Shown here: in pieces, positions 4,875 to 17,170 of the stretch
Layout: every line of letters begins with the position of its first letter
Numbering within the stretch: the stretch's first letter is position 1
From: an uncultured delta proteobacterium
GTDB taxonomy: Bacteria; Desulfobacterota; Desulfomonilia; UBA1062
DNA length: 64,000 bases
Direction: 5' to 3'
NCBI GenBank assembly: GCA_963752595.1
Contig: CAVVYZ010000005.1
Span: 96,001-160,000 of the forward strand
Made by a program: the position numbers and the translations under genes
Notes under the pieces: model-generated
Databases searched by the model: none
What the model was told of the DNA's origin: nothing
The model's input: only the letters and a program-made list of their open reading frames with translations

Positions 4875-6182
4875 GGTTAAGTCTCTATAGTTCTGTAAAA
4901 AGGTAAAACGAGCCAAGAGCAACTCCGATAAAGCGAAGTGACCAAACAAACGCTTGAAGGAGGAGCAGATGGCTCGCAGGGAAGATGATAAGGATTTATT
5001 GGGTATTTGGCAAGAGGCGACGGTGCAAGGAGACGATGGTTTGCGGAGAGTAATGGAATCGGCAATACAAAGGATCCTTGAAGAAGAACTGACCTCATTT
5101 CTCCAGGCAGAGACTCAGGAACGGGTACAAGCCGAGGGCATTGATGACCCGGCTGGGACGGATGGAGCTTCTGGTGCCCAAGGACCGGGAAGGCCGGTTT
5201 CAGACCGAACTCTTCGATCGATATCAAAGGAATGAGAAGGCATTGATGCTGTCATTGGTAGAGATGTACGTGCACGGGGTATCGACCCGGAAGGTCAAAG
5301 CAGTTACCGAGGCCTTGTGCGGATTAGACATATCGAAGAGTCAGGTATCCCGGTTGGCGAAAGACCTGGACGAGGAAGTAAAGGCATGGAGAAGTCGTCC
5401 ATTGAAGAAGTCCTATCCGTATCTGGTGGTGGACGCCCGATATGAGAGGATAAGAATCAATCATCAGGTATTACCGCAGGGTGTTCTTCTGGTAGTGGGC
5501 ATAGGAGAGGATGGGTATCGTGAGATCCTGGGCACCTGGGTAGCCGATTCCGAGAACGAGGCGAGCTGGTCTGAGGTATTCAAGGAACTCAAGGAAAGAG
5601 GCCTCAATGGTGTACGGTATGTGGTGTCTGATGATCATGCCGGTCTTGTTAAAGCCATTGGAAGGCACTTTCAGGGTTGTCTGTGGCAGCGATGCCAGGT
5701 TCATTTTCTCCGCAACATCATTTCTCAGGTCAGCAAGAAGGATCGGCCCAGGATCATAGAGATGGTCAGGGACATCACGGCTGCACAGAGCTATGAGATT
5801 GCCCGTAAGCGGATGGATGAGGTCATCGAGGCCTTGGAGAAGACTCATCCAAAGGTATCTCAGATGCTCGACGAGCATGGAGAAGAGATTCTTTCTGTCT
5901 ACCAACTGCCTCTCCATCACCGGAGATCGATGAAATCCACGAACATGCTGGAGCGGTACAATCAGGAACTGAAGCGCAGAACTAGGGTAGTTCGCATTTT
6001 TCCTCATCAGGAATCCTGCCTCAGACTGGTGACTGCCATGGCCATGGAAATGAGTGAAGAATGGATGGTCCGCCGATACCTCATCTTCGAAGATGGGGTA
6101 TCGGATAAGAACATAAAAGATCAGCTGGCTGCTTAATGCTTATGTCGGAGATTGCAATTTACAGACAATCGGGGACTTGACT
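4875..6182 (+). mobile_element. IS256-family insertion sequence
   Basis: 8-bp direct repeat CCGCGACT at 4867-4874 and 6183-6190. Imperfect 25-bp terminal IRs (GGTTAAGTCTCTATAGTTCTGTAAA vs revcomp AGTCAAGTCCCCGATTGTCTGTAAA, 16/25 identical). Encodes a Mutator-type transposase. Confidence 0.95.
4969..6136 (+). pseudogene. IS256 DDE transposase, frameshifted by an apparent deletion near 5112
   Basis: Motifs VPKDREG, GVSTRKV, VVDA, VVSDDHAGL, WQRCQVHF and STNMLERYNQELKRR. The N-terminal part (ATG 4969, GGAG RBS) is out of frame with RNGYKPR...TRLG. Confidence 0.88.
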
Positions 6183-6257
6183 CCGCGACTCAAAATTCAA
6201 CAAAGTTGATGCCCTCAATCCTACTAAATAATTGTCGCTGAATTACGATTATCATCC

Positions 6258-6635
6258 GAGGCTGTCGGAAAAGTCCGAAGACTTCTTATGGAATATTTCC
6301 TAATAATTTCTTGCTAATGCCATTATAGCCTATTTCATGTGAGAAGGACCTCATCATCTATTTGAGCAGGGGGGAGCAGAGCTTTCGGCGTAGCCGGAAT
6401 GTGACAGCGGCAGCCGCTCTTGCTGAGGAACCTTATTGAAAGGTATATTAACCGTATGAAACATTTCAGATCCCTCGCAACTCGGTATGATAAATCAGCT
6501 TCAAGCTATCGGACCTTGTGGACCATTGGTGCTATACTCCTATGTCTCTAGCTTTTACTTTGCGTACAGCACCTAGATCATTCTGTGAGGTCGTTTTCTG
6601 ATCACCATTGATCATTTTACTTTTTCGACAGTCTC
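6258..6635. mobile_element. Divergent relative of the 147-bp MITE, interrupted by an IS5 remnant
   Basis: Termini GAGGCTGTCGGAAAAG and CTTTTTCGACAGTCTC are inverted repeats. Internal CATTCTGTGAGGTCGTTTT is shared with the MITE. Confidence 0.7.
6426..6576 (+). pseudogene. IS5-family transposase C-terminal remnant and right end
   Basis: Hand translation RNLIERYINRMKHFRSLATRYDKSASSY... matches the RN.IER...K.FR..ATRYDK motif. Ends ...CAGCACCTAG. Confidence 0.8.
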
Positions 6636-6694
6636 TATAGATATCTGCACATTATCCTATTCATCCTATTCAAGAAATAGCTCATATCTTCATG

Positions 6695-6841
6695 GAGGCT
6701 GTTGAAAAACTCCGGGAAGTGCAAAAACTATCAAATCGGGACCATCAAAACACAAGCCTCGATCAATAAATTTCCAATGTCGGGCATTCTGTGAGGTCGT
6801 TTTTTTGTCACTTTTCAACCTTTTAGTTTTTCAACAACCTC
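6695..6841. mobile_element. 147-bp MITE, copy 1
   Basis: TIRs GAGGCTGTTGAAAAACT / AGTTTTTCAACAACCTC, no ORF. Identical by eye to 10650-10796. Confidence 0.9.
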
Positions 6842-6900
6842 ATGGGATATCTGTAGTACTAGTCAACGCTGGAAGGTTCAAAGTATATCAATTTTAATGA

Positions 6901-6968
6901 ATATGTCTGTAATAAGTGTTATACATAAATATATGCAGAATTAATTCTGCATGTCCATTGTTCGAATC
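6901..6968 (+). promoter_or_regulatory. attI-like region and first cassette recombination point (G|TTCGAAT at 6960), with a perfect 20-bp palindrome
   Basis: GTTCGAA (6960-6966) is complementary to R'' TTCGAAC of the first attC. AT-rich upstream. ATGCAGAATTAATTCTGCAT palindrome at 6933-6952. Confidence 0.5.
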
Positions 6969-6981
6969 ATAGGAGTATAGC

Positions 6982-7611
6982 GTGGGATACACTAAAAAGG
7001 ACTGGGTAGCACGAATCCGCGAACGTACAGATATGAGCACCCTCTTGACTCATCTGACCAAAGAGGGTCCGGATGGTAAAATTTCTAGGGAGGTCCTTCT
7101 TAAGATATTACTTGAGCAACGGCTCATAGGGAGTACAAGTACTCAAGGATTCATTTGCGGTGACACTCCTGCGGTATGCTTCCAAGATGCTCCTCTTTAC
7201 TCGATTGCTCAGAACACGCTATTCGAGCAGAAGATGCGCCAAGATCGCAAATCATCAGTTGTCCGCTATAGGCCTCTTGGGTTAGCTTTCCCCAAACCAT
7301 ATCTCTACATGAAAGGGGCACGGCCAGTTGTGTACGATGATACCGAAAATGCAAAGAGGTTTCTCCCAAGAAATGAATGGTGGCGCATCGTTCGGCTTGA
7401 TCTTTCAAATGAGAATGCCTTCGTGGATTGGACTCATGAACGTGAGTGGCGGCTTCCTGGAAATCTTGAATTCAACTTGAGCGAGGTTACTTTACTCGCA
7501 GTCGACAATGAGGCAGTGAGTAATATCGCTGCGCTATATATGAAGGAAACTGGCAGGGAGATTAGAGACGAGATCGGAGGCATAGTGACCATGCGAGATG
7601 TTCTCTACTGA
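6982..7611 (+). CDS. AbiGi/DUF2971-like protein with ADP-ribosyltransferase-like motif order; putative phage defence, cassette 1
   Basis: THLT...AVCFQDAP...RY..LGLAF...GARPVVY...DWTHEREWR. GTG start with AGGAG RBS just after the GTT site. Confidence 0.65.
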   Translation: MGYTKKDWVARIRERTDMSTLLTHLTKEGPDGKISREVLLKILLEQRLIGSTSTQGFICGDTPAVCFQDAPLYSIAQNTLFEQKMRQDRKSSVVRYRPLGLAFPKPYLYMKGARPVVYDDTENAKRFLPRNEWWRIVRLDLSNENAFVDWTHEREWRLPGNLEFNLSEVTLLAVDNEAVSNIAALYMKETGREIRDEIGGIVTMRDVLY

Positions 7612-7624
7612 TTAGGACTGGAGG

Positions 7625-7681
7625 TTCGAACAAGCTAATTCAGCGGACGGCTTACATCCGCCGCTGATCCGCACGTTCGAT
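7625..7681 (+). other. Integron attC site 1
   Basis: TTCGAAC-5 nt-AATTCAGCGGACGG...CCGCCGCTGATC-5 nt-GTTCGAT. R''/R' pairing is TCGAAC/GTTCGA, and the L''/L' stem has two unpaired bases. Confidence 0.85.
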
Positions 7682-7721
7682 GCATGAGAAAAAGATACTG
7701 CCAGGCTTATGGAGGTGACCA

Positions 7722-9023
7722 GTGTCAGTAGCCGATATGTTTTCCGAGTTCATTGCCAATCTTGCGATCGACAACTCTGAAACGATCAGCTCACGTTACG
7801 GTGAACTGACCACGGCACTAAACAAGGCATTCCGGGACACAGAGTCGAAGACTGCAAACACGCTTCAAGTTGGATCGTTCGGAAGGAAAACTGGCATCAA
7901 AGGTATTTCCGACTTGGATATGCTTTATCTCATGCCCAAGTCAAAGTGGGACGCCTACAAAGACTCTAAGCAGCTCAAGCTTCTTCAGGATGTGAAGACA
8001 GCCATTCTCAATCGATATCCAAAAACTGACGTTCAGGTTGATCGGCTTGTAGTAACCGTCACCTACACGAACTTTTACGTAGAGGTGCAGCCCGTATTCG
8101 AGCAAGATGATGGAAGCTTTAAGTATCCTGACACGAAGAATGGAGGCGTATGGAAGACCACCAAACCACGAGAGGAAATGAATGCTATTGCAGAATTGGA
8201 CACGTGGAAGAACTCAAACCTTCGTCGACTCTGCAAAATGGCTCGCGCATGGAGGAATAAGCATGGTGCCGGAATGGGGGGCCTCCTTATCGACACGCTT
8301 GCATACAATTTTCTTAAGTCGACAAGCGAGTATGATACAAAGAGTTTCCTTTACTATGATGAACTCAGCCGGGATTTCTTCGAATATCTCTCTGAACTCC
8401 CCAAGCAAGACCGCTACGACGCTCCCGGAAGCAAGCAGCATGTCAAAGTCAAGAAAGCATTCCAACGAAAAGCAGCGAAAGCATATCGCCTCTGCGTCAA
8501 GGCAATTGAGGCGGAAGGCACAAAGGGCGTTAACGATAAGTGGAAGAAAGTATTTGGACGCCCATTCCCCGCTAACGCCGAACTGACAAAAGAGGTCGTC
8601 CTCGCGAATAGCACAGCGACTTGGGACGATACTGAGGAATTTATTGAAGACCGATACCCCGTCGACATCCGCTACACACTTAAGATTGACTGCGACGTAA
8701 AACAGAACGGCTTCCGCGAGGACCGCTTAAGCGCGATGCTCGCAAAGATGATTCCTTTGCTAGCGAAGAAAACACTCGAGTTCGAGATTGTGCAGATAGA
8801 TGTGCCAGGGAAGTATTCGATTGAATGGAAGGTTCTTAACAGAGGAGAGGAAGCCCGCAGGCGTAACAAAATAAGAGGGCAAATTGTCCGTGATGATGGA
8901 TCTCACACGAAGATTGAACCAACCTCTTTCAAAGGCGACCACGTTGTCGAGTGTTATGCAATAAAGAATGGAGTGGTTGTAGCGAAAGATCGAATCCACG
9001 TGCCAATCAGTACAAACGGTTAA
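7722..9023 (+). CDS. SMODS/CD-NTase (cGAS/DncV-like) nucleotidyltransferase with C-terminal AGS-C domain
   Basis: GSFGRKTGIKGISDLDM (GS...DxD), VEVQP, YPDT..GG.W..TKP and LCKMARAW motifs. C-terminal WKVLNRGEEA...RGQI...EPTSFKGDHVVECY is the AGS-C signature. Confidence 0.92.
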   Translation: MSVADMFSEFIANLAIDNSETISSRYGELTTALNKAFRDTESKTANTLQVGSFGRKTGIKGISDLDMLYLMPKSKWDAYKDSKQLKLLQDVKTAILNRYPKTDVQVDRLVVTVTYTNFYVEVQPVFEQDDGSFKYPDTKNGGVWKTTKPREEMNAIAELDTWKNSNLRRLCKMARAWRNKHGAGMGGLLIDTLAYNFLKSTSEYDTKSFLYYDELSRDFFEYLSELPKQDRYDAPGSKQHVKVKKAFQRKAAKAYRLCVKAIEAEGTKGVNDKWKKVFGRPFPANAELTKEVVLANSTATWDDTEEFIEDRYPVDIRYTLKIDCDVKQNGFREDRLSAMLAKMIPLLAKKTLEFEIVQIDVPGKYSIEWKVLNRGEEARRRNKIRGQIVRDDGSHTKIEPTSFKGDHVVECYAIKNGVVVAKDRIHVPISTNG

Positions 9024-9027
9024 TGCC

Positions 9028-9603
9028 ATGAAGAAAGAAGACATCCTTAGAAACATAGCCGAAACAGGGTATAATGTAGGCTTTGGTGCGAAGAAACACT
9101 TCGCTACGTACGACATTGTGGCAAAAGTTCCTGGTCTAATTGGTTTTGCATCGACTGCAGTTGGTATCTTCGCCCTCTTTATAGATTTTCTCTCCACGAA
9201 GCATCTATCCGCTGCGTTTATAGTCTTTGGTGTTGCGGGACTTTTCATCAGCCATTACGACCATAAAAAGCAGAGCTATGCGGACGCAGGAAGCGAACTT
9301 ACCGTACTATTTAACCGACTAAAGGCGCTTTATTTCAACGTAAAGGGGACCGATGCGCGCGATCTCAACGAGTTCGAAAATGAGCTGGTGAATATTGAAC
9401 ATGATTATTACGCTAAATGTATAAGCGAGCAGATCCTCTTTAGTGATTGGTATGCTCACTACAAGTTCTTCTGGCAGCACCAAATTGGTTGGATCGAAGA
9501 GCAGAAGCGATTTCGGTTCTTTCGCGATAAGGTACCGCTTAGCCTTATGGTGACGATTCTTTTTGTGGTGATCGTATCTGGTTTGGTTATCTGGTTGGGT
9601 TAA
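9028..9603 (+). CDS. SLATT-family transmembrane effector (CBASS-type)
   Basis: YNVGFGAKKHF motif, two N-terminal TM helices and a C-terminal TM. Starts 4 nt after the CD-NTase stop. Confidence 0.85.
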   Translation: MKKEDILRNIAETGYNVGFGAKKHFATYDIVAKVPGLIGFASTAVGIFALFIDFLSTKHLSAAFIVFGVAGLFISHYDHKKQSYADAGSELTVLFNRLKALYFNVKGTDARDLNEFENELVNIEHDYYAKCISEQILFSDWYAHYKFFWQHQIGWIEEQKRFRFFRDKVPLSLMVTILFVVIVSGLVIWLG

Positions 9604-9629
9604 AAAAACCATTAACGGTTCATAGAGCG

Positions 9630-9686
9630 GCATCGAACAAGGCGGCGGACGCCGACAAGTCGCGCCGCTGAGCTTAAACGTTACTC
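9630..9686 (+). other. Integron attC site 2, L'' arm apparently shortened
   Basis: GCATCGAAC AAGGC GGCGGAC...CGCCGCTGAGCTTAAAC GTTAC. GCATCGAAC is the exact reverse complement of GTTCGATGC at 7675-7683. Confidence 0.8.
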
Positions 9687-9699
9687 CAGGAGTCTGAAA

Positions 9700-10506
9700 G
9701 TGCCATCTTGTAAAATATGTAGAGAAGCTATTTTCGATGGTATTCATCTTTCCGATGGTGAGATGATCCATGAATCGTGCTTGAAAAACATTCAAGGCAA
9801 GGAAAAGGAAGTTGAAAACTACATATATGCACAGAAAGATAAATTGAAAAGGCTTAGGCAAGAAATTGAAAGACGTGAAGGGTTGGGATTTAAGATTATA
9901 TCAATATTTTCAAAGCCTGACATTGCTACCTTTGACATAGAAAGGGAAATTCCAACAATTGAGAAAAATATTTCTAGTTTGTCCAACAACTTGATATCCT
10001 TGCAAGCTTATACCACTTCTATTTACGATTACTTTCTTTCATATCCCCCTGATTGGGAAAAAAGAAGACGTCAAGTAATAGAAAGAGATGGTGAGCAATG
10101 CAGTGAATGCGGGAACGGGGGGCATCTTCACTTACACCATATCAAGCCCTTATCTAAGGGAGGCAGTAATAAAATATCAAATTTAAAACTGCTATGTGAA
10201 AATTGTCACTCGGAAGAGCACTGTGGGCGAAATTTCTCTGGTGAGTTTAACAGTTCGGAAACAGCATTTTCTAAACGTTTAGCAAATATACGATATGCCA
10301 TAGACAACGGAAAGCGTATTAAATTTAGCTACATGAAGTATAACGAAAAAAGCTATAAACAAAGAACCGTTAAGCCAGCTGAACTTGTAAATTTAGACCA
10401 TCATAGAGATAGTGGATCAACTCTTTGTGTTCGTGGATATTGTGAACTAAGGGAAGCGGAACGCGTATTTGCATTAAAGCGAATGAAGGGCCTGAAAGTA
10501 TTATAG
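9700..10506 (+). CDS. HNH endonuclease-WYL domain fusion with N-terminal Zn-binding motif and coiled coil, cassette 3
   Basis: CxxC...HxxC N-terminus. HNH: PPDWEKRR..V.ERDG..CSECG...HLHHIKPLSKGGSN...NL..LCENCH. WYL: AIDNGKRIKFSY...RTVKP...GYCELREAERVFALKRM. Very AT-rich. Confidence 0.85.
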   Translation: MPSCKICREAIFDGIHLSDGEMIHESCLKNIQGKEKEVENYIYAQKDKLKRLRQEIERREGLGFKIISIFSKPDIATFDIEREIPTIEKNISSLSNNLISLQAYTTSIYDYFLSYPPDWEKRRRQVIERDGEQCSECGNGGHLHLHHIKPLSKGGSNKISNLKLLCENCHSEEHCGRNFSGEFNSSETAFSKRLANIRYAIDNGKRIKFSYMKYNEKSYKQRTVKPAELVNLDHHRDSGSTLCVRGYCELREAERVFALKRMKGLKVL

Positions 10507-10531
10507 GCATAACAAGCCCATCAACTCGGAT
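10506..10531 (+). other. Truncated attC site 3 (R'' and L'' half only)
   Basis: GGCATAAC AAGCC CATCAACTCGGA directly after the stop codon. No L'/R' arm found before MITE copy 2. Confidence 0.6.
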
Positions 10532-10649
10532 AGGGGATTTCCCCCAGGAATAGATCTCAATAAGCACCAAAAAGTAGTTATCGGAATGGTCAAAACAATT
10601 GGCAGGGCTCAAAACCCTTCATATTGTTTTTAGTATACACATTATCCTA

Positions 10650-10796
10650 GAGGCTGTTGAAAAACTCCGGGAAGTGCAAAAACTATCAAATCGGGACCAT
10701 CAAAACACAAGCCTCGATCAATAAATTTCCAATGTCGGGCATTCTGTGAGGTCGTTTTTTTGTCACTTTTCAACCTTTTAGTTTTTCAACAACCTC
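10650..10796. mobile_element. 147-bp MITE, copy 2, same orientation as copy 1
   Basis: Identical by eye to 6695-6841; flanked by TA on both sides. Confidence 0.9.
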
Positions 10797-10851
10797 TATA
10801 GAGGTCTGTCCTTTCGGATGAAAATATAGATGCTTTGATATCCTTTGAACA

Positions 10852-12129
10852 TCAGGGATCAAGATTAGATACGTCCACGCATGATAAGGGACTTTTCTCA
10901 ATTTTGACCAGATACAGCGGGGAAAGCACTGTCAGGCCAAGAGCGATAATCATTAAGGCCTGACCTAAACCAAGATAGTCGGCCAGAAGACCGATTACAA
11001 AAGCCAGGACGGCGGTGTAGAATGCGGTTACCAATGAGCGGACAGACAGCGATGTCGCCAAGATTTCGCATGGTACGGTGTCACTCACGTAGGTTACGCT
11101 CATAGGCGACCTCAGGTTTTGGATAATAAAAATGCCCGTGAACAGAACAACTGCCGCAAAGCCATAGCCGAAATGATAAGTGAAGCCACAGAGGATGCCG
11201 AGACAGAAGCCTGTGAGCATCGTGAGATTCAGTGGTCTGGTAAGCGTATCGAAGTGCGCGGTAAATTTGCCTGAATACCTGCTGGCCCATGATGTCATTA
11301 AATAAATACAAAAGTAGACTATGCCTACTAATACAGCCGAACGCTGTTTAGCTTGAAACATGACCAGCACAGGCAAAGTCAGAGCTAAGCTCTTGATGAT
11401 GGGCTGCAGGAAATCTTTGACGGCATTGTAAAACCCGTCATAGATGCAGACATTGGTAGTTGCCCTGAAGGCCCCCTGTCCCCTGAACGTAACCTTCAAA
11501 CTCTGCCATACCATGAAGAAGCTTTCCTTGATACTGTCACTCTTATTAATTTCCCGATCCAGCTCCTGGGGATATGTGAGCATCAGGAATAGGTTCAGGA
11601 CATAGGGCAGGGTCGATATCAGAAAGATCACATCGTATCGTCCGCTCACGAAGACGATTGCCGCCGCGATCAGGGCTGAAACCGCCGAACCCTTCTGAGA
11701 CCAGGAACGGGTATGCCCGTAGTAGTCTACCTTTTGATCCTGCCAGCCGTTCATCTTGAGGTATTCGAAAATCATGGCCTTGTGAGTGCCTCCCCTGAAT
11801 GCTTCACCGAAGGCAAAAAAAGTCATGGCAAGCATCATGAGCCAGAAAGCTGATGCGTAATAGAAGATAAGGAAGGATGTGATGTAGGCCAGAAATGACT
11901 GAACCATTGTTCGTCGACGGCCGAGCGCATCAGCGATAACACCGGTAGGTACCTCCATGAGGCTTGTCATGATTTCCCGGTAGGCATAGAGCGTACCGAT
12001 CAGTGTGTAGCTCAAGTTTTTTTCCAGCAGGAACAGGATCAGAAAAGGCTCGAAGAGCTTAAGGTTTTTCAGGAAACCATAGGCGCTGAACTTGACGAAC
12101 TGGAGATCCTTTTTGTATTTTTCAGCCAT
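10852..12129 (-). CDS. MFS transporter
   Basis: About 12 hydrophobic segments; EVPTGVIADALGRR motif A. Confidence 0.9.
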   Translation of the reverse strand: MAEKYKKDLQFVKFSAYGFLKNLKLFEPFLILFLLEKNLSYTLIGTLYAYREIMTSLMEVPTGVIADALGRRRTMVQSFLAYITSFLIFYYASAFWLMMLAMTFFAFGEAFRGGTHKAMIFEYLKMNGWQDQKVDYYGHTRSWSQKGSAVSALIAAAIVFVSGRYDVIFLISTLPYVLNLFLMLTYPQELDREINKSDSIKESFFMVWQSLKVTFRGQGAFRATTNVCIYDGFYNAVKDFLQPIIKSLALTLPVLVMFQAKQRSAVLVGIVYFCIYLMTSWASRYSGKFTAHFDTLTRPLNLTMLTGFCLGILCGFTYHFGYGFAAVVLFTGIFIIQNLRSPMSVTYVSDTVPCEILATSLSVRSLVTAFYTAVLAFVIGLLADYLGLGQALMIIALGLTVLSPLYLVKIEKSPLSCVDVSNLDP

Positions 12130-12732
12130 GGGTTGTTGAGCGTCTCCGTGAACCTTTTACTATCCACCCCTAAAAAGATAACGTACACAAAGAATGCCCT
12201 CTTGAGTGCCTCTATTAACACGAAGATCATCTGTTATGGAATTGGGTTTAGTGCTACAATTTTCATCATGAGTCATGAAAAAACATTTTTTCTGCATAAG
12301 CAGGTTCTCGTCCGCTATCCCAACCCTGTCGGTGTGGGCATCGCTGTTGGAGGCAGTGCTGTATTTTTATGCGGCCGTCAGTCTGATCGCCTATATGATG
12401 GAGGATGACCGGGTAGCAAGCGGGAACTCTGATGTCATGGCTGTACACGTTATGGTAAAGGCATGGTCAATTGATGGGGAGATTATAAAGAGCTCTGCCA
12501 ATCGTTATAGTCTCAAGTATTAAGTAATTTTGTACGGATATATCTTGAAGATCATAAATTTCTAAATATTGTAAAACCAAAAATTTATCGCGAAACTGTC
12601 AGTACTTTTAGTAAGTCCCTTACATAGCTCTTGAATAAGTGAAGTGCATCGCTACAATAAATGTGTGGAATGCGCTACAGGTGAGCCTAGTTGATAGTAG
12701 AGTTTTATCAAGATATGAATGGAGCTTATTAA

Positions 12733-13038
12733 ATGAAAATTTCAGAATGGTTGGATAAAAAGGAAGCAGAAGGCTTCGATGTATCTCAAATCATATTGCC
12801 TGATGCCGTATCTTTTAACGATGATCCCACCGAAACTATTTTTTTTAAGGAGATTAGGCCTTGCGGAATCCTCTGCACAGGCAATCATCCGTTTTCTACT
12901 GTTGAACGCTTTGAACACTGGTATTATAGCAGAGGCCAAGACAAAGAGGCCGGTATTCACTCCTCCAAGATGAAGTGGTGGTTGTTTACAAAGGATAAAG
13001 ATACCGCTGTCGATGCAGCTAAGTCACACATAGAATAA
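12733..13038 (+). CDS. Hypothetical protein
   Basis: 101-aa ORF with GGAG RBS in AT-rich DNA; no family recognised. Confidence 0.55.
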   Translation: MKISEWLDKKEAEGFDVSQIILPDAVSFNDDPTETIFFKEIRPCGILCTGNHPFSTVERFEHWYYSRGQDKEAGIHSSKMKWWLFTKDKDTAVDAAKSHIE

Positions 13039-13384
13039 TCTGATCTAATTACGTGGCTATATGATCTTTTGAGGAGATCTTCGTCAGGCCTCTGTTTTGA
13101 TAAAATAGTGCCATGCAAAAGCAAGTGTTCAGTATTTATATTATTATAAACTATAATTATAATAATTGTCGTAACATTCATTATTCTCAAAGCTATATAC
13201 CTGGACTATAGAGATCATCACAGAATCTATGGTCTTGAAAAATCCAACTCGTTTCGTTGCCTCTAGCACAGGATATTCAATATTTCGGATATTTCGGAAT
13301 AATAGAGTCCGTGACATACAGTAAATTCTCATATTATCATATTACAAGAAATCAGTAAGCAACATTTTAATTAATAAATGATGT

Positions 13385-13414
13385 AAGGCAGGGCAGCATA
13401 CGCTGCCCTGCCTT
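13385..13414 (-). terminator. Hairpin, probable intrinsic terminator
   Basis: AAGGCAGGGCAGC-ATAC-GCTGCCCTGCCTT just downstream of 13433-15376. Confidence 0.65.
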
Positions 13415-16030: not shown

Positions 16031-16121
16031 GTGACCAGACTCTTTATGTCAAAATAGGTCTTATAGGAAGTCAATATTCCTTGAAGTTATCTCTAGTCTG
16101 CTAATACATATGATCTCATCA

Positions 16122-16788
16122 GAGGGTGTTGAAAAACCCGTTTTGGAAGATGTACTTGTATCCCTGAACCGACCCATGGGAGGTCGTCATTATCGCTGAC
16201 TCGTTATCCGTCATGTTGCTCTTGATCTCCTTGCCTTTCTTCCCACCCTTCCCGTCGTTCTCCTCAAGCCATGCCTTTATCCGCTGTGCCTGCTTCGTGA
16301 GTTTCTCGATCTGCTTTTCCTTGCTGCTCCCGGATGGGGGAGGCGGATCATCATCCTTCCTGTCTTCATCCTCCTGCTCCTTGAGCATCTGCCGCACCTT
16401 CTCTTCGATCCGGGCCTTCTTCCGCTTCAGATCGGAGACCTTCCCGCTCCACTGCTTCGAAGCATTCGATGGAAGCTTGCACCCGTCCCGGGCAAAAAAC
16501 GTCCCGCCTAAAAGTTCCAACTCCTCACATACCAGCAGAATGTTCCTGAACAACGGCAGGATCTCGTCCTTCATGGTGGGGACAAACGTGGCTATCGTCG
16601 TATGATCCGGGCATTGCCCGCAGGATAAGGCCATGAATACGATATTCTCACGGCAGGCCTGCTCGATCTTCCTCGATGAGATCAATCCCCGAGAGTATCC
16701 CAGCAGCACTACCTTCAGCAGAATCTTCGGGTCATAGGCCGGACTGATAGCTTCCTTGAGACTTTCTGGGGACTTTTTCAGCAGCTTC
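16122..16788 (-). mobile_element. Internally deleted IS1182-family element with transposase fragment (ORF 16119-16802)
   Basis: AYDPKILLKVVLLGYSRGLISSRKIEQACRENIVFMAL...PDHTTIA, (D)GCKLPSNAS and NMTDNES motifs. Ends GAGGGTGTTGAAAAAC and CTTTTTCAGCAGCTTC. Confidence 0.82.
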
Positions 16789-17170
16789 TTCGAAGATCTC
16801 AACTGGCGGGAGATGAATCCTCAGTTTAAGTCCCTAAAAGAATTAAAAGATCCGAGGGGATCACAAATCGAACAAGCTGTATGTACGATAACTTCTTGAC
16901 TAAAGCAGTTTTTTTGCCTAATCAAATCTCAACTATTACGGCTTAAGATCCGGTCGGACATTCTTCAGAAAGATGACCACCTGGCGCACTCAGATCGGAT
17001 CATAGCTGCTACTCCCCCGATATCACGGAGTAAATATCATTCCATAAGGCTTCACAGATGTTGCATACATACAAATGACTTCGTCACAATTACTCGTCGG
17101 CATCAAGCTTTCATGGTTGAGAAATGGCGATCCCTGCGTGCTCGATTCACGTCCATTGGGAGTGAATCCT

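Follow-up and report, generated by a model that had tools for sequence, protein, structure and literature searches.

What does a protein do that carries an HNH nuclease domain and a WYL domain in one short chain, and does it act alone? The gene in question (9700-10506, forward strand) lies in a 64,000-nucleotide stretch of DNA from an uncultured delta proteobacterium, here called the window, and a first-pass annotation of this stretch saw in it a candidate sensor-nuclease. Direct coupling of a ligand to an enzyme through a WYL domain has been proposed since 2014; the cases that we found worked out comprise transcription factors, the tether of a helicase and a system of two proteins, and the 268-aa product encoded here offers a small test object for WYL-to-effector coupling. 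Its family comprises well over a hundred diverse clusters and supplies natural controls, namely a Poribacteria clade whose HNH domain is probably dead and relatives anchored by a transmembrane helix.

Domain architecture and the WYL ligand

The reading frame starts at a GTG codon, with AGGAG at 9688-9692, and encodes, in order, a zinc finger, a helical hairpin, an HNH domain and a WYL domain. Its GC content, 36.8%, is below that of the window (51.6%) and of the genome (53.0%), so the gene is AT-rich relative to its host, as had been remarked. Most differences from four close homologues are at third codon positions, with 98-125 there and 39-55 at second positions, which fits a gene under selection. 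Conservation is given below for 121 full-length representatives, that is, the proteins spanning the whole length among the 150 representatives of 50%-identity clusters listed.

The N-terminus forms a predicted zinc finger, C4-x2-C7-x16-H24-x2-C27 (9709-9780, forward strand, as for all domains that follow), which is present in 119 of the 121 representatives and is putatively zinc-binding. It leads into residues 28-109 (9781-10026), where AlphaFold2 places helices at 25-59, 62-70 and 77-109; the coiled coil of the first-pass annotation is this antiparallel hairpin, and the proposed single polypeptide of zinc motif, coiled coil, HNH and WYL is borne out by Pfam, by the AlphaFold2 model and by the conserved finger. 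A YPPDWxxR motif and a zinc-binding HNH domain (C134, C137, H146, H147, N161, C166, C169, H170 and H174) occupy 10042-10221, with a Pfam match at residues 134-174 (E 4.6e-11, above the curated cut-off). The WYL domain, residues 189-268 (10264-10503), is recognised by Pfam (residues 194-267, E 2.2e-10, above the curated cut-off), by its fold and by residue conservation. HNH precedes WYL as first described, but not directly; the two are joined by a 14-residue linker, and pLDDT falls to about 60 at residues 181-190.

The AlphaFold2 model (69-row alignment; pLDDT 91.2, pTM 0.78) ends in a five-strand barrel that superimposes on the WYL domains of BrxR, CapW, PafBC and DriD with Z of 9.7-11.5 and an rmsd of 1.6-3.4 Å over 72-79 residues (VIA-align); Foldseek matches the same four proteins with the C-terminal barrel. 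The barrel is an Sm-like SH3 fold with the conserved basic groove and the cysteine of the family. Neither a helix-turn-helix (HTH) nor a WCX domain is matched by Pfam at E≤0.1, and the protein stops at the last WYL strand, as first noted; any C-terminal extension is at most 15 aa in 111 of the 121 representatives. Two proteins (P0250 and P0260) carry an extension that by inspection resembles a second WYL domain.

The HNH part aligns with the HNH domains of McrA and IscB. Together with the Pfam match, the conservation of H146, H147, N161, H170 and H174 predicts metal-dependent DNA cleavage; residues of this kind serve in HNH nucleases as the general-base histidine, the asparagine and the metal-binding histidine. 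H147, N161, H170 and H174 are jointly kept in 116 of the 121 representatives and H146 in 144 of 149 clusters. For the N-terminal part, fold searches return generic coiled coils only, the finger has no library match and no N-terminal relative in Atlas (best 0.77), and no whole-protein structure is found among the PDB and BFVD matches listed. Residues 1-117 folded alone without an alignment give a poor model at the finger. A homodimer prediction scored 0.00 and is counted neither for nor against a dimer.

The tip of the hairpin (residues 61-72, 9880-9915) is a hydrophobic, acid-poor, Phe/Leu-rich helix and is a predicted membrane contact. A sequence criterion for such a tip is satisfied in the middle third of the hairpin in 98 of 114 representatives; the outer thirds satisfy it in 19 and 10, and shuffled sequences do so in 709 of 2280 cases (31%). 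By an amphipathicity criterion the count is 68 of 136 at the tip, and 15 and 12 at the helices on either side. In two of 253 proteins (P0153 and P0162) an N-terminal transmembrane helix stands in place of finger and hairpin in front of the same HNH-WYL core; in a quick tree, whose inner support is weak, the two do not share a branch. The conservation of the tip and these transmembrane relatives suggest that the tip is a membrane tether; it could also be a protein interface.

The family profile places the WYL domain among solved structures. The Pif1 helicases 8bns and 8bnv rank highest among WYL proteins (E 1.5e-9 and 5.7e-9), against 1.7e-3 for CapW and 0.026 for PafBC; by profile, the domain is closer to the accessory ssDNA-binding WYL of Pif1 than to the WYLs of regulators. 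In TePif1 the WYL is an ssDNA-binding accessory of a monomeric enzyme (bioRxiv 10.1101/163188), and in DdPif1 five arginines, R464, R491, R495, R498 and R501, are predicted ssDNA contacts (PMC9964779). R464, R491, R495 and R501 align with R222, R251, R255 and R261 here, and R498 aligns with A258. R222, R251, R255 and R261 (or K) are all kept in 115 of the 121 representatives, C243 is present in 117 and A258 in 103; C248 is also conserved.

Comparison with PafB leaves more doubt about the ligand. Binding of ssDNA by PafB is abolished by Y196A, by R181A and by R211A/R214A (PMC11804915). The HNH-WYL protein keeps counterparts of R181, R204, R208 and R214 but has C243 in place of Y196 (by ungapped mapping) and A258 in place of R211; its ligand may accordingly be something other than ssDNA. 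Since the Pif1 WYL also lacks the tyrosine, ssDNA is still the likeliest predicted ligand. The path of ssDNA is a WYL-WCX tunnel in PafBC (PMC11804915) and a crevice formed by both WCX domains in CapW (PMC11662680), and an HTH is found in over 90% of WYL proteins (PMC6789036); this allosteric machinery of the regulators is missing from the HNH-WYL protein.

The same Cys/Ala WYL subtype also occurs without an HNH domain. Proteins of about 165 aa (L064:3395-3889, L066:3924-4409, L067:7740-8240, L135, L139, L140 and L172) consist of a transmembrane helix, a CxDG...GACSHHGGV motif, a second transmembrane helix and then the WYL domain; the part with the motif we take to be DUF3761-like. In L066 and L140 the genes have attC sites on both flanks. 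A 785-aa kinase-looking protein (L137:2153-4507), presumably YegI-like, has a transmembrane segment and ends in the same WYL subtype, with attC sites behind its gene.

The cassette array

Three co-oriented units make up 6982-10506: a gene for a 209-aa protein, a CBASS cyclase with SLATT_6, and the HNH-WYL gene, all on the forward strand. The 209-aa protein (6982-7611) has a weak AbiGi-like Pfam match (E 0.0088, below the cut-off) and no match in PADLOC, NCBIfam or PHROGs; it is a possible stand-alone defence candidate. Its cassette is closed by an attC site at 7625-7681 (51.8 bits, E 1.2e-11; hairpin z -4.0) whose identity to repeats in other arrays of the host is 81-89%. The CBASS cassette (7722-9603) holds the cyclase, with SMODS and AGS-C domains (7722-9023), and the SLATT_6 2TM effector (9028-9603); a complete two-gene CBASS is thus packaged in one integron cassette whose ends match at 8/8 positions.

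A weak attC-like site at 9632-9686 (14.5 bits, E 0.22 by covariance model) closes the CBASS cassette. Its left core (9631-9638) complements the CBASS cassette start (7675-7682) at 8/8, and the G at 9680, at its right end, marks the start of the HNH-WYL cassette, just ahead of the gene start at 9700. A truncated attC likely follows the gene, its left half being 10507-10530: bases 10507-10513 pair with 9680-9686, where the cassette begins, at 5/7, compared with 7/7 for the first cassette, and neither the covariance model nor folding finds a complete attC downstream. The gene's own attC therefore looks truncated. Because an attC-like site intervenes and the cassette ends pair, the HNH-WYL gene is a separate integron cassette stacked beside the CBASS cassette; the two are adjacent, as the first-pass annotation had it, and do not share a cassette.

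The covariance model, derived from 14 attC sites in other arrays of the host, favours host-like sites; an attC-like stretch visible by eye behind the gene in L002 escapes it. Of the 67 family loci, six have strong matches, and these six belong to the 26 loci with an identity of 48% or more; the model finds none at the 41 more distant ones. The relative in L092/L005 has matches on both sides of its gene. Among 63 control loci, those of Poribacteria give 0 of 30 and the other 33 give three, all of them at genes for proteins with the same WYL subtype. Another attC detector, made ad hoc, was dropped: with hits in 4 of 49 loci and in 32 of 490 shuffles, it gave no gain over chance.

The integrase gene intI of the host lies on another contig, where C20:113001-133851 is a full integron, comprising intI together with nine or more attC sites; integrase-less arrays are found at about 102000-107300 of C13 and about 14700-18000 of C16. 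The integron and the two arrays (L173-L175) contain toxin-antitoxin pairs and many unknown cassettes. Around the array in the window, which has no integrase of its own, two miniature elements of 147 bp with 17-bp terminal inverted repeats lie to the left (6695-6841) and right (10650-10796), identical at 147/147 positions and in direct orientation; further copies (77-98%) occur on C20, C13 and C9. The pair could mobilise the array as a unit; their outer flanks share no target duplication. An IS256-family transposase gene whose start is apparently split over two frames (4954-6136) and a DUF772 (IS1182-like) transposase fragment (16119-16802) are also present in the window. Rfam yields nothing meaningful at 6100-13400, and a promoter scan is at chance level (12 against 8.0 +/- 3.0).

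Family distribution and neighbouring genes

An unrestricted search at E≤1e-30 gathers 149 clusters (50% identity), and a word search finds 152 proteins at E≤0.001, with both Pfam domains in 115 of 120 of the matches listed. Pfam, NCBIfam, PADLOC and PHROGs match single domains only and hold no whole-protein model; the nearest Atlas clusters are annotated Poribacteria WYL/HNH (0.96) and Melainabacteria HNH/WYL (0.87). Loci L069-L080 and most of L143-L160 are WYL-only matches and are excluded from the family counts. The distribution is patchy: the gene is found in 0 of 11 genomes of the same genus, 60 relatives yield one full-length match (a second match is a WYL-only protein), and a phylum sample has it in 1 of 300 other genomes. 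At E 1e-15, searches of 72,556 plasmids and 50,697 phages yield no match; three IMG/VR contigs match the family. Family genes split into two frames are seen in L006 (7917-8798) and L141/L142, in a prophage-like or integrase-containing region.

Fifty Poribacteria loci (L008-L024, L026-L050 and others) form a distinct group, and the 11 rows sampled for the quick tree fall on one branch (SH-aLRT 96). In their HNH domain, H147 is kept in 50 of 50 and H146 in none; H174 is lost in 45, with tyrosine at position 174 in 43 and at 170 in 24. The finger is kept, as are R222, C243, C248, R251, R255 and R261 of the WYL domain in all 50. As the lost histidines correspond to metal ligands of HNH nucleases, the Poribacteria members are likely dead nucleases; with H146 gone in 50/50 and H174 in 45/50, nuclease activity appears dispensable in this clade. 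A gene for an AAA_35 ATPase lies directly upstream in 32 of the 50 loci and is missing there in 18; none occurs among the scanned neighbours of other loci. Type ISP restriction-modification (RM) and DarTG genes are frequent Poribacteria neighbours.

Neighbours were scanned in two sets, one covering 114 of 160 listed ORFs (partly family genes themselves or WYL-only loci) and the other 150 of 166, with a subset rescanned by PADLOC. Defence genes lie nearby in 9-12 of 49 related non-Poribacteria loci, and the remaining 37-40, many of them on short contigs, have no recognised defence neighbour. In genomes the count is 6 of 12: Abi_alpha (L001); Kiwa, type I RM, Abi_C and PDC-S31 (L005); Mrr_N and AbiU2 (L007); a methylase, an SNF2 helicase and GmrSD-Schlafen (L059); type I RM (L060); and a DUF4011 helicase (L063). 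Among metagenome and viral loci, where L092 is omitted as a copy of L005 and many contigs are under 3 kb, it is 3 of 37 strictly (type I RM in L104, HEC-07 in L110 and GmrSD in L163) and 6 of 37 loosely (also L089, L098 and L134). Control genes outside the array in the same window give 0 of 53 (Pfam at 1e-8; neighbours scanned at 1e-6) and 0 of 41 with PADLOC. The defence-gene enrichment is moderate, and its control is narrow, being one region of one genome. The first-pass annotation had proposed looking for homologues enriched in defence islands and integrons; the former holds to this moderate degree, and the latter comes to the 6 of 67 loci with attC. Around the 49 other non-Poribacteria loci, the scanned neighbours include no cyclase, and no partner recurs.

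Function and relation to known systems

The combination of WYL with an HNH endonuclease was stated by Makarova et al. 2014 (PMC4012209), with two such proteins in the supplement. The first-pass annotation did not recognise the architecture as a named system, and none of the libraries models the protein whole. The two listed proteins, likened here by their listed domain architecture, have 402 and 524 aa (one is SIG+HNH+HNH+WYL) and share HNH followed by WYL in one chain and a proposed ligand-binding role in defence; the zinc finger, the hairpin, the cassette context and the dead-HNH clade are features not described in the part of that paper available to us. The literature searched, which does not extend to most subscription journals and defence-screen supplements, holds no characterised or named HNH-WYL protein. 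The architecture class has thus been known since 2014, and the family is an unnamed one, a candidate one-gene defence nuclease.

Among better-known proteins, Pif1 (TePif1; DdPif1 and SsPif1, PDB 8bnv/8bns) likewise ends in a WYL domain without WCX and shares four of five predicted ssDNA arginines and a conserved cysteine (PMC9964779); it differs in being a helicase rather than a nuclease and has R498 where the family has alanine, and the invariant C243 is added here. The crystallised 8bnv and 8bns constructs lack the WYL itself. CapW, BrxR, DriD and PafBC share the WYL fold and most basic groove residues; the HNH-WYL protein has finger and hairpin at the N-terminus instead of an HTH, lacks WCX, has Cys for the Tyr/His of the WYL motif and FA for FR, and has a predicted enzymatic output. 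KELShedu, likened by description, pairs a WYL-like barrel with a DNase against phage, in two proteins, with a PD-(D/E)XK nuclease, dsDNA binding by KELA and NTP depletion as trigger (PMC12577705). With McrA, ZorE and IscB-type zinc HNH proteins the family shares the HNH core, four zinc cysteines and the HH-N-H-H residues; matches cover the HNH only, far below family cut-offs, and a methylcytosine reader, RuvC, guide RNA and Zorya partners are missing. IscB/OMEGA (NF040563, 54.9 bits against a cut-off of 175, HNH only) and Zorya type II ZorE (NF041791, 18.3 bits against 600, with no zorAB beside the gene) were rejected.

A defence role of some kind is probable, because the spread is patchy, the cassette mobile, the catalytic residues intact and defence neighbours frequent (6/12 and 3-6/37, against 0/53 for control genes). 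Compact anti-phage systems are known to be carried by integron cassettes (10.1101/2024.07.02.601686); the main text of that preprint contains no mention of WYL. The reading that we prefer, and hold tentatively, is a stand-alone HNH nuclease defending against phage or plasmid DNA, with the WYL domain tethering ssDNA or tailed DNA, probably at the membrane. The WYL domain would grip ssDNA or an ssDNA tail much as the related Pif1 WYL does, serving more to tether the substrate than to switch the enzyme allosterically; finger and hairpin would form a stalk whose hydrophobic tip keeps the protein at the inner membrane, the entry point of foreign DNA; and captured DNA would be nicked by the single HNH site. 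The host would be spared because it has little ssDNA of its own, all of it covered by protein, and because the enzyme is kept off the chromosome. Under heavy activation the cell could still die. The tether is suggested by Pif1 being the best WYL match and by the kept DdPif1 arginines.

The first-pass annotation had proposed a one-gene abortive system with a nuclease activated by WYL ligand binding. In this reading HNH stays off until the WYL domain binds a phage-induced ssDNA or other nucleotide signal and then cuts DNA indiscriminately, killing the cell; we consider this possible but somewhat unlikely. No antitoxin, methylase or other fixed partner accompanies the gene outside Poribacteria, so a built-in restraint would be needed, and the WYLs of CapW, PafBC and DriD are ligand-triggered switches (PMC11662680, PMC11804915). 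Coupling of ligand to effector was proposed by Makarova et al. 2014 (PMC4012209), KELShedu acts by abortive infection (PMC12577705), and the WYL residues held invariant in Poribacteria with a degenerate HNH fit a sensor. Against this, the allosteric WYLs known so far work as dimers whose ssDNA crevice depends on WCX, a domain that the family lacks, the nearest enzyme-fused WYL, that of TePif1, is a tether (bioRxiv 10.1101/163188), and the linker between HNH and WYL is of low confidence. The one-gene part of the earlier proposal fares better, given the lack of a fixed partner, the mobility and the frequent nearness of defence genes. A bolder synthesis, which we rate as unlikely, would have a one-gene immune nuclease family in which the tip sits at the inner membrane and the Cys/Ala WYL catches entering or phage ssDNA and is thereby switched on, the dead Poribacteria clade being reused as a pure sensor.

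Other readings place the protein outside immunity or subordinate its nuclease. A nuclease specific for DNA structures, serving repair or the processing of mobile-element ssDNA and spread for that reason by cassettes and islands, would fit the use of WYLs in DNA-damage responses and Pif1 helicases, the integrases or transposases near L089, L101, L128, L142, L162 and L163, the position of the L057 gene behind a RecN/SMC-like gene and the long retention in Poribacteria; it is improbable, as the distribution is very patchy, no repair-gene neighbour recurs, and direct neighbours include Abi, AbiU2, type I RM, GmrSD, HEC-07, PDC-S31 and DarTG genes. Even less probable is a sensor or adaptor for a host or phage protein bound via tip or finger, with HNH secondary. 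The Poribacteria branch, which lacks the HNH metal ligands, keeps finger and WYL and often has the ATPase upstream, speaks for it, as does the same WYL subtype on small transmembrane proteins and a kinase-like protein; the loci without the ATPase, both within Poribacteria and elsewhere, and the intact HNH in 116 of 121 representatives speak against it. That the gene is a third component of the neighbouring CBASS is very improbable. The SLATT gene, also on the forward strand, ends 96 bp upstream of it, but an attC-like site separates them, the CBASS cassette ends pair with each other, no cyclase is seen among the scanned neighbours at non-Poribacteria loci elsewhere, and Pfam finds no SAVED or CARF domain; the context largely refutes this reading, and the adjacency is cassette stacking.

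Should phage protection by the preferred stand-alone nuclease prove true, it would add a family for which the four libraries scanned have no whole-protein model. A WYL domain that gates the nuclease of its own chain would be the first such case in the literature searched; if it only tethers the substrate, the addition is modest. A different nuclease joined to WYL is encoded at L089:810-1646, where a DEDDh exonuclease-WYL fusion (PADLOC PDC-S48 in the exonuclease part) lies near an integrase gene and an HNH-WYL gene.
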